Assembly (NCBI GenBank): GCA_012646185.1
Contig: GCA_012646185.1_4706.1
Source of the DNA: a phage
Length of the DNA stretch: 64,000 bases
Reading direction: 5' to 3' (one strand)
The notes below the pieces were generated by a model. It did not search any database, had not been told where the DNA came from, and worked only from the letters and a program-made list of their open reading frames with translations. Each line of letters starts with the position of its first letter. The stretch's first letter is position 1. This document shows, piece after piece, positions 360-37,233 of this stretch. The position numbers were made by a program, and so were the translations under genes.

Positions 360-908
360 TTATTTCACAAGAACAGCGAATTCGAGAACATAAATAGCTT
401 CATCGTCCATCGGATTTGTTGTGGTATAACCAGCGAAGCAATAGCCCATATCCACGATAAACTCGCTAAGTTTATCGATGACTGATGCCCCGATACGATC
501 GTCAACAGACAGGCGACATTTACGGGTTATGTTTTGCCCGCGAGGAACGCCAGCTAACACGGATAGGAAATGTACGATCCGGTTATTGGTTGCGAACTGC
601 ATGTAATCATCGTAGTACTTAAGGTCTTTCATCGCAGACTCTACCGTCATACGACGACCAGGTGACACATACTCAGAATAAGAATAAGCTGCGATCGTAC
701 GACGATCTTCAGTAAGGTAAGTATTCCCTTCGGGATGATAACTCTCGACTGTTCCGTCTTCATGGGTGACGGTCACAACAGGTGCGCCGTACTCATCGCG
801 ACCGAAATCAATTTTACATTTATCCGAAAGCGGTAGAACCGTACAAGGCTTTGCACTGTTCTCATCAGGGAGATCGTAACCACTCATCATTTTCAAGAAC
901 ATAGACAT
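360..908 (-). CDS. hypothetical protein, paralog of 993-1526
   Basis: 182-aa ORF; N-terminal half shares NAKP, VTH.D, GN.Y, IA.Y.YS with the neighbouring ORF. Confidence 0.5.
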   Translation of the reverse strand: MSMFLKMMSGYDLPDENSAKPCTVLPLSDKCKIDFGRDEYGAPVVTVTHEDGTVESYHPEGNTYLTEDRRTIAAYSYSEYVSPGRRMTVESAMKDLKYYDDYMQFATNNRIVHFLSVLAGVPRGQNITRKCRLSVDDRIGASVIDKLSEFIVDMGYCFAGYTTTNPMDDEAIYVLEFAVLVK

Positions 909-992
909 AATAGAACCTCATGATAATAGATAATAGAAATGATAGATAGTACAACAAATTGAGGGGTATTATCCCACCCCTCGTAGGGATTA

Positions 993-1526
993 CTACTTAA
1001 CGATCGCGATGATTTTGCCACCCGCACCGGCGTAATATGCCGTTAACTTACCAGTAAACAACTCTTGTAAAAGACGATTTACGTTACTAACAAAATTAGG
1101 ATTGTCCGATTTTACAAAATCGATGTTTCGCGTTTGTTTTATATCACGATCGATTAAACGGATTTCCAACAACGCACAAATAAGGCGATCGTCGAGTTTA
1201 CCACTCGCATCCAGCACTTCCCCATACTTCGTAGCACGGACGTCCGCATACATACGGTCAACATCATCCTTCCCAAAACCACAGGAATAGGCATACGTTG
1301 CGATGGTGTTACCATTGTCCATCACATAAACGTTACCACCTGGGTAATCGATAAATCGTTGATCCTTATCACCATGAGTGACGAACTCCAGTGTCGGTCT
1401 ACCTAGTGAATCACGATTGAATTCGATAGTTGTCAAACGGTCAGGCACCACATGTAACGTAAACGGTTTTGCATTGTTACGATCGCTAGTATCGCAGTTA
1501 CCCATTACTTTTACGATAACACTCAT
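993..1526 (-). CDS. hypothetical protein, paralog of 360-908
   Basis: 177-aa ORF; tandem paralog, stem-loop gaggggt/acccctc downstream at 961-981. Confidence 0.5.
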   Translation of the reverse strand: MSVIVKVMGNCDTSDRNNAKPFTLHVVPDRLTTIEFNRDSLGRPTLEFVTHGDKDQRFIDYPGGNVYVMDNGNTIATYAYSCGFGKDDVDRMYADVRATKYGEVLDASGKLDDRLICALLEIRLIDRDIKQTRNIDFVKSDNPNFVSNVNRLLQELFTGKLTAYYAGAGGKIIAIVK

Positions 1527-1600: not shown

Positions 1601-1900
1601 TTACTGAAACAAGACATTAAATTCGACAAGATACCCATCGGATCTATCGCCCCGATAACGGTTGCAGAAAACACCGAATTTCATCAAGAACTCACATAGC
1701 TCTTCGGCTTTGTATAACGGAATACGATTTTCGTCGAGCAGAGGGCAACTATGGCTAACCCGCTCCGACGAATCAACGCAACACAAATAAAGAAGGAACC
1801 GAACAATAGCTCGGTTCTTAGTAAAGCTCTCGAATTCACCCACAGTTCTGAACTCATCGAGGAGCTTTGTCGTTTTCTTCAATCGTTCACGATCGAGCAT
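1601..1900 (-). CDS. hypothetical protein
   Basis: 99-aa ORF. Confidence 0.4.
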   Translation of the reverse strand: MLDRERLKKTTKLLDEFRTVGEFESFTKNRAIVRFLLYLCCVDSSERVSHSCPLLDENRIPLYKAEELCEFLMKFGVFCNRYRGDRSDGYLVEFNVLFQ

Positions 1901-1963: not shown

Positions 1964-2278
1964 TTATTCTGTTTTCGGTGTTGAACCGTTCTTCTTGAAG
2001 TCGGATTCGTATTTCACGTTAGAATCGAGAACCTCACGAACGGTTTTATCTGTACAACCACGGGCGACGTATGCATTAAGATCGTCGCGTAATTTACGCA
2101 TCGTTGTTTTATCCGCATCAGAAACATCTGACTTGGTAAGACGGAATGCAATTGCATCACGAACTTTATTCAGCGTTGCTGGATTATTACGCTGCTCTGC
2201 AAATACCGCTTTGATGAATGTACCGCTATCTTTCGAAGCGATGGCTGCATCAAGAATTTCAATATGCTTTTCAGACAT
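1964..2278 (-). CDS. hypothetical protein
   Basis: 104-aa ORF. Confidence 0.45.
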   Translation of the reverse strand: MSEKHIEILDAAIASKDSGTFIKAVFAEQRNNPATLNKVRDAIAFRLTKSDVSDADKTTMRKLRDDLNAYVARGCTDKTVREVLDSNVKYESDFKKNGSTPKTE

Positions 2279-2329: not shown

Positions 2330-3655
2330 TCACTTCAAAAGCTTAGACACCGCCATGCTTCGCGCCATCGCAACGTCATACGCATCCATGATCGCGTCAC
2401 CGATAGCGGTATGACGGATCAACGGAATACCCATATCTGGATACTCTTTGGTGCCTAAGATGGATACCGGTTTGTCTTGATACGCGGCAACCATCGAACG
2501 AATATCCTGAACCTGGTTATAACGGCAGATTGGTTTGAAGCCCGCTTTACGGAACCAATGCTCTAATTGCGGCCAATCTGTTTCACCACGAGCAAGATAA
2601 TAGAAGGTATCTTTACCGTAGTATTCGGTCATTTTGTCACGAATACTGTTGACGAACGCATTTACTTCGGCGATGGCTTCTTTATAACCCATTGCCTTAC
2701 AATGTTGAAAACAATAGTCGCGCGCTTCCTTTGGTGCTTTGGTTTGCCACCATTCTACTGTTGATTCACTGATACGACCACCGTCAGCGATTTGACCATG
2801 AACGTCAGGGAAGATATCTATACGCGGACCGTTAACAATGGATTCTGGATTAGCCAGATCGAAGAACACGATACCGATTTCCAGCAATACTCCATTCTTT
2901 TCCAGACTAAGGTTTTCAACATCTAAACAAAATGCGGGCTTCTCTACCGCTAACGGCTCGAACGAATGGTTGCTGGTATCCGATTCGGTTTTAAGTTCGA
3001 CGACAGCCGGATCGGTATCCGTAGGTTTCAGTTCTACTACAGCATCATCGAGTCCCGATAACGAAAAATAGTCTTCGAAGAAATCGGATATCGTCATACC
3101 ATGCAAATTGATATCGCAATCTTCCAACCATTGCTTCAACTGGTGCTCACCGGCATGAATCGCTAAACGGCACGGTCCGGAACGATCATCTAGCGCTGCA
3201 TCGATCCAGAAGAAAGCGCGTATAAGTAAGTAAGGATTATACTCCGCGATGATTTCTTGGCTAGCCGAGAAATCGTACACCATTAGTTGTATTATTCCCT
3301 TACGCGTGTTATACGGATCAACTTTCAATCGACGCACTATTTCTTCTACGAATTCCAACGCGCGCGTGTACGAGGTGGACCCACCTTGTTCATACGAACA
3401 TATACCCGTCAAAAGTTCCTTATAGGACGCATATGGAACCATAGGCGATAATTTGTACGACAGTTCAGTATTGTAATTATCGCATAATTTCTTCGGGGCG
3501 ATAGCATCCTGTATCGCTGTAATAAACGCCGGTCCATCAATATCAAACAACCATCCTTGACGCCGGTATGCAGTGTACCGTAATAACGCACCGATAACTG
3601 CCTGGGGCGGTGTATATTCTTTCCCGTTAATTTCAAACAGTAGTTTGCTCATCAT
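2330..3655 (-). CDS. protein with C-terminal DEDDh-type 3'-5' exonuclease domain
   Basis: 441-aa ORF; Exo I-like FCLDVENLS, Exo III-like RHTAIGDAIMDAYD (H-x-A-x-x-D-A); internal repeat AVVELK x2. Confidence 0.55.
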   Translation of the reverse strand: MMSKLLFEINGKEYTPPQAVIGALLRYTAYRRQGWLFDIDGPAFITAIQDAIAPKKLCDNYNTELSYKLSPMVPYASYKELLTGICSYEQGGSTSYTRALEFVEEIVRRLKVDPYNTRKGIIQLMVYDFSASQEIIAEYNPYLLIRAFFWIDAALDDRSGPCRLAIHAGEHQLKQWLEDCDINLHGMTISDFFEDYFSLSGLDDAVVELKPTDTDPAVVELKTESDTSNHSFEPLAVEKPAFCLDVENLSLEKNGVLLEIGIVFFDLANPESIVNGPRIDIFPDVHGQIADGGRISESTVEWWQTKAPKEARDYCFQHCKAMGYKEAIAEVNAFVNSIRDKMTEYYGKDTFYYLARGETDWPQLEHWFRKAGFKPICRYNQVQDIRSMVAAYQDKPVSILGTKEYPDMGIPLIRHTAIGDAIMDAYDVAMARSMAVSKLLK

Positions 3656-3667
3656 AACACCTTTTCA

Positions 3668-35257: not shown

Positions 35258-35617
35258 CAAAATCTTCAGTATGAATCGCTACTTCATACCCGCAGCATTA
35301 CCTGCAGCTCCTGGTGTTACCAGGATGTTGAGAGTATATCATGCCCATATTCCAAATGGAACGTAGGACTTCCGCGCTGGATCTCGCTTGAGACCACTTA
35401 CTCGTTGAACGTTCTCCTAAACGGAGCTTCGCTGCTGATTGGACATTGTTACGTACGGTAGGCGTCCCATTAAAGGGATTTTCATTGAAGCCGCGTACAT
35501 CCGTTACCTTGTTTCTACCTTATCGGTTCCTCTTACGAGGCGTAACGGCTTTAGCCTATTCCAGCAATTCACGGAATGCATATTCTCCTTTTCAGGAGAT
35601 AAGGCCATGGCTCTGGC
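35258..35617 (-). ncRNA. putative self-splicing intron 1 (ORF-less, group I-like), boundaries approximate
   Basis: About 360-nt hairpin-rich sequence between DFDGD codons and resumption of beta-prime homology; tandem relative of intron 2. Confidence 0.5.
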
Positions 35618-35632
35618 ATCACCGTCAAAGTC
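35618..35632 (-). CDS. RNA polymerase beta-prime micro-exon encoding DFDGD (proposed)
   Basis: Minus-strand codons GAC TTT GAC GGT GAT; flanked by the two intron copies; exon 1 ends ...GYNA. Confidence 0.5.
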
Positions 35633-35982
35633 CACATATCTTCAGTATGAATCGCTACTTCATACCCGCAGCATTACCTGCAGCTCCTGGTGTTACCAGG
35701 ACGGAGAGATCATCTCATCACCCACGAAGGGTGTTCCGCGCTACCCTCAGCGAATTCGAGGGACATGATCGTTGAACCTTCCACCGATAATCGGTGGCTA
35801 GGCTGCTGATTAAACATTGTACGTTGGGGTGGCATCCTGGTTCAGGACTGTCGTTGAAGCCTCCCAACATCCACTCACTTATTTCCGCCTTATCGGCTCC
35901 CATAAGGGCAGAGTGGCTTTAGCCCGTCTCAGCAATTCACGGAATTCAAGCTCTTCCTTTCAGAAGGCAGGGCCTCATCTGA
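35633..35982 (-). ncRNA. putative self-splicing intron 2 (ORF-less, group I-like), boundaries approximate
   Basis: Follows the codon for Ala of ...KGYNA (exon ends in U); RNA ends in G just before GAC of DFDGD; track ORF reads 17 codons into it then stops. Confidence 0.5.
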
Positions 35983-37233
35983 AGCATTGTATCCCTTAAG
36001 GATCATCACGCTTAACCCGATGGTGTTATCCTGCGGATCGCGTTTAACCTTGGTGATTTCAAGACATTGGTTACTGCTTCGGTCAAGTGATGGGTTTCGA
36101 ACAAAGCCGCACACAATCCCATCGAACGGCGTATCAGCAATAAGCTCATCGTGCAGCTCGCTCATCATCGGATGATAATTACGGACATGTTCCGCAACGA
36201 ACGCACGCGCTGCTCTCGGTGAGTAACCACGATGGAATAACTTGGATTGGATATGTTCTTTATTGGTTAAAGTAAATGGTGCGTATGGGAAATGCAGATG
36301 ATAATAACGATGGTTCGCTGTTATCGAACTGATTACGGTACGCGTGGTGAATGGATGTAATGTACCTAATATGTTTTTACGTGTAATACCTTTCTTCTTA
36401 CCGATGAACTCATCGAAAATCGCTGCGTGGTATTGCAGTAGCTTCAATTGCACTTTCGCCATCCAGTTTTCTTTCTTTCTGGCGCTCAAAGGTGTTGTTG
36501 GATGATAGATACTGTTCAACGTACCAATAGCATCGATCGCACCTTCCATTTTGCTATCCGCATAACGACCGGTCGGCGTATTTTCGATAACGAACATCAT
36601 GGCTGCAGGAAAGCTGATATACTGACTGAAGAACTTATCACGATGGATACGGATGAATTCTCGTAGCGTGTCAACTTTCTCCATGTTCTTCGGTCCACGT
36701 AACGTCGGTCCTTTATACAAGATCTCCATGATGCGATCGAAGTTCTGTATAAAGCTATTTACGCCACGCCGTATCCCGAATACATCGAATTGCTGCTCCA
36801 GATAGTTCTTGAGTTCGATGGGTCGTTTTACATTTGGACGGTAACTGGCATCAATGAGCCACGTCATCGTTTCAAAGCTTTTGATATTCAACTCGCTTGC
36901 CAGCACGAGATGGACCAACGGGTTAATGAACGCATCGATTCCTTCAGGAACGCGCGCCCAAACCGTCGAACGAATCTCTTGTTCTGCTGGGTAGGTTACA
37001 ACCGTTTTACAGTTTGGACACACCGTGCCGAGTAGCTCACCACGATTGTAGAAACCACAACCACATTGTGGTGTGATATCCAACGTATCGCTGGAGTAAA
37101 CACGGGTGATAAAACTGTTTAATTTCTTCTTCTCTTCGACGACTTTTGTATCGTAATCATTCAACAAAATCGGCGTGAAAGGAAGTTCTGCGAGCTGTCT
37201 ATCGAAACTCACGATATCGAGCATGATGGCCAT
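35983..37233 (-). CDS. RNA polymerase beta-prime N-terminal subunit, exon 1
   Basis: Zn-finger CGCGFYNRGELLGTVCPNCKTVV (compare CxCGKY...C..CGVEV); NPSLDRSS (compare NRQPSLHK / NRAPTLHR); IGLSVMILKGYNA (compare LNLSVTSPYNA) immediately before the missing DFDGD. Confidence 0.65.

Follow-up and report, generated by a model that had tools for sequence, protein, structure and literature searches.

A 64,000-nucleotide stretch of phage DNA (assembly GCA_012646185.1, contig GCA_012646185.1_4706.1; hereafter the window) carries, on the minus strand between positions 360 and 1900, three small genes that constitute a lineage-specific modular family. Gene A (360-908, 182 aa) encodes an N-terminal domain (N-domain; residues 1-80, positions 669-908) followed by an alpha/beta domain that we refer to as C1-type (residues ∼83-182, positions 363-662). 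Gene B (993-1526, minus strand, 177 aa) joins an N-domain (residues 1-83, positions 1278-1526) to a second alpha/beta domain, C2-type (residues ∼86-177, positions 996-1271). The third gene, ORF-C (open reading frame C; 1601-1900, minus strand, 99 aa), is a C1-type domain standing alone, as in the C-terminal half (C-half) of gene A. A and B are tandem paralogs by virtue of their shared N-domain, their C-halves evolve faster than their N-domains, and module shuffling and cassette exchange contribute to the family at least as visibly as drift after duplication.

The source of the window is a Goslar-like chimallivirus, i.e., a nucleus-forming jumbo phage of enterobacteria. The first 6 kb match Escherichia phage vB_EcoM_Goslar (NC_048170, 132,659-138,599), a 237-kb nucleus-forming chimallivirus, with 94.7% nucleotide identity, and the whole 64-kb window is collinear with the Goslar genome at 94-97% identity, two replaced segments excepted. 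All genes in the region of A, B, and ORF-C lie on the minus strand. Gene A, which has a GAGG ribosome-binding site 9 nt upstream, is the ortholog of Goslar gp143 (94.5% amino acid identity) and gene B that of gp144; both are labelled merely as hypothetical proteins in the Goslar annotation. Directly upstream of ORF-C is the capsid-latch gene (1964-2278, minus strand, 104 aa), the ortholog of Goslar gp146.

Reading frames at 360-908 and 993-1526 had been pointed out in a preliminary description, which did not give the strand, as tandem paralogs with a conserved N-terminal half and a divergent C-terminal half. Both frames are present, on the minus strand, and both halves behave as described. A BLASTP comparison of A and B aligned residues 1-78 with residues 1-81 at 32 of 81 identities (40%) and 57% positives, with an E value of 8e-14. 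The N-parts gave an alignment score of 131, compared with a shuffle mean of 24.3 (standard deviation 4.5, z = 23.7), and none of 2000 shuffled sequences reached the observed score, which rules out chance similarity between the two N-domains. The motifs I.F.RD, VTH.D, GN.Y, and IA.Y.YS were found as quoted, although NAKP is literal only in B and reads NSAKP in A. For the C-halves, on the other hand, the Smith-Waterman score was 22 against a shuffle mean of 25.5 (z = -0.8) and the hhalign probability was below 1%. The possibility that these are spurious or non-coding frames was ruled out by ratios of nonsynonymous to synonymous substitution rates (dN/dS, or omega) of 0.06-0.2, by their presence in 13 loci, and by peptides and transcripts from Goslar.

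The preliminary description had further attributed the pair to duplication followed by diversification. In a neighbor-joining tree of ∼70 N-domains, built without bootstrap, the N-domains of A, B, and the cassettes D, E, F, and G of related phages form a single clade, which fits a lineage-specific expansion by duplication. The same N-domains have a common K-P/R-P signature where the remaining family has K-G/K-S. Tandem paralogy is borne out, but divergence of the C-halves after the duplication is not demonstrated. C1 is common to A and ORF-C, and the C-domain of B is common to cassette E, so recombination at the level of domains contributes as well. The proposed search for more paralogs, carried through the window and the whole 237-kb Goslar genome, returned no further N-domain copy but did show that ORF-C shares the C1 domain of A; using hidden Markov models (HMMs) and six-frame translations, no additional copies of the N-, C1-, C2-, or D-type domains were found in the window or the complete Goslar genome. 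A and B are paralogs as described, but the account of a two-gene tandem overlooked the third gene.

ORF-C aligns with residues 101-182 of A in BLASTP at 27% identity over 82 residues (E 2e-7). Against the C-half of A its shuffle z-score is 12.5 and its hhalign probability 97%, and it has no similarity to gene B. The Goslar counterpart is intact at NC_048170 134266-134562 (minus strand), yet it is unannotated; the annotation at this site is gp145, on the opposite strand (134413-134640, plus strand). The window and Goslar differ at 3 of the 99 ORF-C residues, whereas the opposite-strand product differs more and has another end. The dN/dS of ORF-C is 0.11-0.17 among four phages, and the frame is intact in 13 of the 13 related loci examined. 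The few amino acid differences, the low dN/dS, and the intact frame in 13 loci favor the minus-strand reading. In the part of the Goslar proteomics tables examined, gp145 was not found. The Goslar reference annotation lacks a conserved gene under purifying selection, ORF-C, and gp145 is probably a mis-call. An arrangement in which gp146 and ORF-C are the two pieces of a split paralog was ruled out, given that gp146 is helical, unrelated in sequence, and the capsid-latch protein.

Estimates of selection separate the two halves of A and B. Whole-gene omega for A, B, and ORF-C is 0.06-0.20, which indicates purifying selection (gene A, 0.1-0.2; gene B, 0.06-0.16); a value of 0.83 was obtained for the near-identical pair of A genes from the window and locus L010, which differ by very few substitutions. 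For the N-domain, omega is 0.02-0.10, and for the C-half it is 0.2-0.9 between close alleles. The dN of the C-half is 4-6 times that of the N-domain (0.33 versus 0.07 in A and 0.54 versus 0.085 in B). Column entropy is likewise 2-3 times higher in the C-half, both in 36 A-type sequences (p = 2e-4) and in 87 B-type sequences (p = 2e-8).

The reach of the N-domain was determined with a profile built from those of A and B, which was run against 1.84 billion cluster representatives and returned 183 at E < 1e-3 and 33 at E < 1e-10. Two repeat-protein artefacts were removed, and 148 genuine members were kept for a count of architectures. Stand-alone N-domains of 72-115 aa account for 96 of the 148. 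In the other 52, the N-domain is fused to a C-terminal extension, and the extensions sort into at least 34 clusters with no relationship to one another. With two exceptions, the domain begins at residue 1-6. A reciprocal search with a broad N-domain profile recovered A (3e-28) and B (4e-25) over residues 1-84. Both A and B have the residues K6, M8, D15, K20, G-N-x-Y, and T71 (numbered as in A), each of which is either invariant or conserved to at least 90% in the family alignments; G-K-T is also among the nearly invariant residues.

The family is restricted to phages. Among the chimalliviruses, it is found in phages of Escherichia, Erwinia, Proteus, and Pseudomonas, the named carriers being Goslar, the Erwinia RAY/Ea35-70 group (RAY gp198), Erwinia AH06, Proteus phage 10, and the Pseudomonas phages 201phi2-1 (gp34), Phabio, and Viktualia. 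Outside the chimalliviruses, it is found in 45-kb Acinetobacter Obolenskvirus myophages and one Vibrio phage, and it is also present in lambdoid-like viral contigs, immediately downstream of a gene for a Q-like antiterminator. The domain thus extends beyond nucleus-forming phages and has no conserved gene neighborhood. All of the N-domain loci examined that are not Goslar-like carry one copy each.

Database matches for the family are confined to two PHROGs of unknown function. Of 118 N-domain relatives, 113 match phrog_10337 and 65 match phrog_10807; in a hmmscan against these two, B scored 2.6e-7 and 1.5e-5, respectively, and A only 5.5e-3 and 5.7e-3. Neither A, B, ORF-C, nor any of the 118 relatives has a Pfam hit below E 0.01, and no Pfam domain was found among the 52 C-terminal extensions. 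Searches of NCBIfam and PADLOC, and of Protein Data Bank (PDB) sequence profiles with the N and C1 domains, gave no significant match, where it should be noted that PADLOC covers defence and not anti-defence proteins, such that its negative result does not bear on a counter-defence role. A protein homology search with broad alignments returned close relatives almost exclusively, and a profile scan of genome contigs gave no match. The family also does not resemble polymorphic toxins or effectors, as no recognizable toxin or enzyme was seen among the 52 C-termini and ORF-C, being a paralog of the C-domain of A, is not an immunity-type partner. In the literature, no paper was found that names phrog_10337 or phrog_10807, gp34 is not mentioned in the 201phi2-1 transcriptome paper, and gp198 is not listed in the RAY-family proteomics paper.

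Comparison of 13 Goslar-like loci, taken from isolate assemblies and metagenomes, revealed that the three genes belong to a variable array with conserved flanks, namely, the 104-aa capsid-latch gene upstream and a small gene followed by thymidylate synthase downstream. Between the latch gene and thymidylate synthase, phages of this group carry from one to four cassettes, arranged as C-[D or E]-B-A, or gene F by itself. The C-B-A arrangement is that of the window, Goslar, and several other loci. Six loci have C-D-B-A, in which D is a third N-domain paralog of 200-201 aa, and L035 and L036 have C-E-B-A, in which E is a 181-aa B-like paralog. In L033, a 236-kb Goslar-like contig, the whole array is replaced by the single 185-aa gene F (P0126; 5001-5558), which combines an N-domain with a C1-type domain and represents either the ancestral state or a collapsed array. 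The alleles themselves are also mosaic. When the window is compared with L003, A, B, and ORF-C all have a saturated dS and the flanking latch gene one of only 0.30; L005 has A and ORF-C of the window type and B of the L003 type. This mosaic, together with the deep split between alleles, shows that the cassettes recombine independently.

Every cassette comes with a ribosome-binding site of its own and is followed by a hairpin. On the minus strand of the window, a guanine-cytosine (GC)-rich, terminator-like hairpin lies just downstream of A (325-349), where a terminator is annotated at the homologous place in Goslar. A second GC-rich hairpin, followed by a T-rich run, lies between B and A (961-982) and is also annotated as a terminator in Goslar. 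A short GAGG-loop-CCTC hairpin (1559-1576) is located between ORF-C and B, at the junction where the extra cassette D or E is found in relatives, and a long GC-rich hairpin (1923-1955), conserved in L003 and L005, separates the latch gene (1964-2278) from ORF-C at the upstream edge of the variable array. In relatives, the points of cassette insertion or deletion coincide with these hairpin-bearing spacers. The hairpins may thus be recombination junctions in addition to terminators or RNA-stability elements. A further variable gene in the vicinity encodes a 287-294-aa DUF7448 protein, which follows gene A in most relatives (L002-L006, L010, L021-L025, L033, and L035), is absent from the window, Goslar, and L027, and exists as two or more alleles that differ in the C-terminal third.

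AlphaFold2 predicts the N-domain as a compact all-beta unit of ∼80 residues with seven strands (predicted local distance difference test score (pLDDT) 94-98 in A and 83-91 in B). In both C-halves, the predicted elements follow one another as H-H-H-E-H-E(-E), the last of them a hydrophobic strand at the C terminus; the C-half of B was modelled at a pLDDT of 86-95 (mean of 88.3 for the whole of B), and that of A at a low 47-78. A Foldseek search of the PDB with the full-length two-domain models of A and B gave a best E value of 0.075, with template modelling (TM) scores below 0.2. Against BFVD, the model of B matched that of Goslar gp143 over 188 columns (E 6e-12, TM 0.52), whereas proteins of Erwinia MadMel, Pseudomonas Phabio, and 201phi2-1 matched B at the N-domain only (TM 0.39-0.42). 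No significant similarity emerged when C1, C2, and the C-terminal parts of cassettes D and G were compared in sequence and as profiles. For the C-halves of A and B, pairwise alignment, phmmer, and hhalign were all negative, also after cassettes E and F had been added to the family profiles. The element order of the two is the same, and the full-length models of B and gp143 match at TM 0.52; the C-half of A was modelled at low confidence (pLDDT 47-78).

These results can also be accommodated by a history in which there was no duplication in situ, A and B being fusions that were built separately and juxtaposed by cassette recombination, with C-halves that were never homologous. The present data agree with this history as well as with pure duplication and divergence in situ, and we consider it possible but not likely. 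It would account for the lack of sequence or profile similarity among the C1-, C2-, D-, and G-type C-termini, for the existence of C1 alone as ORF-C, for the fusion of the N-domain to at least 34 unrelated C-termini across the family, and for the demonstrably independent movement of cassettes and alleles. However, the N-domains of A, B, D, E, F, and G are one clade with the K-P/R-P signature, and the C-halves of A and B are equal in length (∼95-100 aa) and in the predicted order of elements. Moreover, the 188-column match between the models of B and gp143 exceeds the N-domain-only matches in TM score, and the low-probability hhalign alignments are collinear over the whole C-domain.

Information on when the genes are expressed comes from Goslar, for which transcriptomes at 30 min are available with and without knock-down of ChmA, a treatment shown to halt infection when only early vesicles have formed, the transcriptome then being of an early type (Supplementary Table 2, bioRxiv 10.1101/2023.09.20.558163). 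Under knock-down, the log2 fold changes were +0.11, +0.22, and -0.10 for gp143 and +0.14, +0.15, and -0.05 for gp144, compared with about -4 for the major capsid protein and -3 to -7 for other capsid and tail genes (bioRxiv 10.1101/2023.09.20.558163). Fold changes near zero place gp143 and gp144 in the early, nucleus-independent transcription class, and the transcript levels of the two genes are alike. Peptides are also on record: liquid chromatography-tandem mass spectrometry (LC-MS/MS) of a Goslar virion preparation detected three from gp143 and two from gp144 (Table S4, bioRxiv 10.64898/2026.04.21.720040), equivalent to an estimated 4-10 and 1-3 copies, respectively, in a sample where the non-virion proteins chimallin and PhuZ reached 84-268 copy-equivalents and host proteins were likewise far more abundant (bioRxiv 10.64898/2026.04.21.720040). 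We take the peptides as proof of translation, not of residence in the virion. Two of them have non-tryptic N termini that follow a tyrosine, Y11|D12 in gp143 (residues 12-30) and Y78|A79 in gp144 (residues 79-91), which may be an artefact of search settings or may reflect processing in vivo. The neighboring gp146 was identified by cryo-electron microscopy (cryo-EM) as a capsid 'latch' protein with 55 copies (bioRxiv 10.64898/2026.04.21.720040). Knock-down of ChmA leaves its transcript level unchanged (log2 fold change +0.1 to +0.4), which makes gp146 early-like even though the protein is structural.

Our working proposal, to which we give roughly even chances, is that A, B, and ORF-C are early accessory proteins at the phage-host interface, built from a constant N-module and exchangeable specificity domains. 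Their site of action would be the host cytoplasm, and their role would lie in host takeover or counter-defence. The N-domain, which evolves slowly, would provide a common function, such as binding of a conserved partner or service as a scaffold or oligomerization module, and the near-invariant K6, M8, D15, K20, G-N-x-Y, and G-K-T would fit such a function. The fast, exchangeable C-terminal alpha/beta domains would supply specificity for variable host targets, and duplication along with cassette exchange would diversify the repertoire. A bolder version, which we regard as doubtful though worth stating, is that the N-domain defines a widespread class of early phage proteins in which it docks to a conserved host factor or oligomerizes, and the C-domains neutralize defence or housekeeping targets. 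If this were true, the Goslar-like array would be a recombining 'anti-defence cassette rack' operating in the cytoplasm before the phage nucleus exists.

Several observations weigh against this proposal. Its functional part we infer from evolutionary behavior and timing only. In the databases searched above, no homology links the N-domain or the C-domains to a biochemical activity or a host target, and the variable C-termini of the wider family include no known-domain match and none marked as an effector. Positive selection on the C-halves is not shown, as omega is below 1 wherever it can be estimated, which indicates relaxed or faster evolution only. Timing discriminates weakly, given that ∼70% of Goslar genes are early in the same RNA sequencing data (bioRxiv 10.1101/2023.09.20.558163), and the adjoining capsid-latch gene lies in the same early-transcribed block. 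Furthermore, the expression data are those of Goslar, which is ∼95% identical, and not those of the phage in the window. Lastly, gp143 and gp144 were detected at a low level in the virion preparation, albeit in a sample that also contained chimallin, PhuZ, and host proteins.

This last point leads to the main functional rival, namely, that the proteins are packaged into the virion and ejected, with the N-domain as a packaging or targeting module for variable cargo in analogy to the internal proteins of phage T4. The detection of gp143 and gp144 at 4-10 and 1-3 copies by LC-MS/MS speaks for it, as does the position of the array next to the capsid-latch gene. Elsewhere in the family, gp67 of Acinetobacter WCHABP12 follows portal and head-morphogenesis genes and 201phi2-1 gp34 lies between tail genes, and the cassette-like architecture with a conserved N-terminus and variable C-terminus agrees with packaging too. 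Yet transcription of the genes is early and independent of ChmA, whereas that of virion proteins falls 8- to 100-fold in the knock-down, and the copy estimates are far below those of contaminating chimallin and PhuZ in the same sample. In addition, the neighbors of gp34 are flagged as virion proteins by mass spectrometry and gp34 is not, both gp143 and gp144 are outside the 28-protein cryo-EM model that has been described, and other contigs place the gene beside a DNA polymerase or antiterminator gene and not beside structural genes. Late expression and stoichiometric presence in virions, which characterize T4-like internal proteins, were not found for gp143 and gp144. Timing and abundance therefore disfavor packaging, which we consider improbable. 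We consider it very improbable that the genes encode capsid- or assembly-associated accessory proteins co-regulated with the capsid-latch protein: the array is next to the latch gene, on the same strand and in the same transcription class, and the low-level virion detection would agree, but the proteins are absent from the cryo-EM composite model, the genes are dispensable or vary in copy number from 1 to 4 among very close relatives with conserved structural genes, and the N-domain family occurs in phages of unrelated capsid architectures.

The window departs from Goslar at other sites too. Beside the array, the exonuclease gene (2330-3655, minus strand) contains a segment (2950-3662) in which the Rv2179c-like 3'-5' exonuclease N-half is non-homologous to that of Goslar gp147. 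The segment is 713 nt in the window and 650 nt in Goslar, and the protein is 441 aa compared with 409-417 aa; in relatives its length is 409 aa, 437 aa, or less (344 aa), which places a mosaic junction right next to the array. At 35578-35983, the window has 406 unrelated bases where Goslar has 1496 bp comprising the HNH endonuclease gp186 and an annotated group I intron in an RNA polymerase beta-subunit gene. No Rfam family, group I introns included, reached threshold anywhere in the window, and the phage appears to carry an intron-less allele. Dozens of near-complete (235-249 kb) Goslar-like contigs are present in assemblies labelled as isolates of Salmonella enterica, E. coli (including O157), Shigella flexneri, and Enterobacter hormaechei. 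This suggests that Goslar-like lytic jumbo phages are often carried in cultures, in a carrier state or as pseudolysogens, or contaminate them.

Nucleus-forming jumbo phages are shielded from DNA-targeting immunity, yet this protection does not extend to the first minutes of infection, nor to phage proteins and mRNAs, which stay exposed in the cytoplasm. Genes that are early, diversify fast, and swap as cassettes are a natural place to look for factors that handle this exposure, and the present family provides a testable shortlist consisting of Goslar gp143, gp144, and ORF-C and of cassettes D, E, and F in relatives. Should none of these yield a phenotype, the array would be an ordinary lineage-specific expansion of hypothetical proteins. 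Regardless, a phage-wide domain with no Pfam entry or structural relative has been defined and a reference-genome annotation corrected. The genes had already been deposited as hypothetical proteins, and tandem accessory families with conserved and variable parts are common in large phages and will not surprise a specialist. What is new is the architecture of the family, the unannotated ORF-C, the breadth of an N-domain that has no structural or functional relative, the dynamics of the cassettes, and the link to early expression.

Three known systems are informative for comparison. The nearest are the members of phrog_10337 and phrog_10807, for instance RAY gp198 (379 aa), 201phi2-1 gp34 (228 aa), and Acinetobacter WCHABP12 gp67 (90 aa), which, like A and B, have the ∼80-residue beta domain at the very N terminus. 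Unlike these proteins, which are encoded by one copy in the loci examined, Goslar-like phages have two to three N-domain genes in tandem plus a gene for a C-domain only, and the C-domains of A and B are unrelated to those of RAY gp198 or 201phi2-1 gp34. A second comparison is with the T4 internal proteins IPI, IPII, and IPIII, which are small, have a conserved N-terminal part and a polymorphic remainder, and are encoded at a hyperplastic locus of varying content among close relatives; one of them, IPI*, acts in counter-defence. Targeting in T4 relies on a peptide of ∼10 residues that the prohead protease removes, and the internal proteins are late, abundant contents of the capsid. A and B have no sequence relationship to them. 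Their N terminus is predicted to be a folded 80-residue domain, and the genes are early with products that are found in virion preparations in traces at most. The third system is the DUF7941 module of chimalliviruses (Goslar gp22, gp23, gp31, and others), in which a shared N-module is likewise combined with diverse C-domains in several paralogs per genome (bioRxiv 10.64898/2026.04.21.720040). Proteins with DUF7941 are abundant and belong to the virion or to host recognition, and the domain is reported to be exclusive to chimalliviruses (bioRxiv 10.64898/2026.04.21.720040). The present family resembles them in joining a common N-module to varied C-domains in paralogs within one chimallivirus genome, but A and B lack any Pfam hit, are early genes, and share an N-domain that extends beyond the chimalliviruses to other phages.

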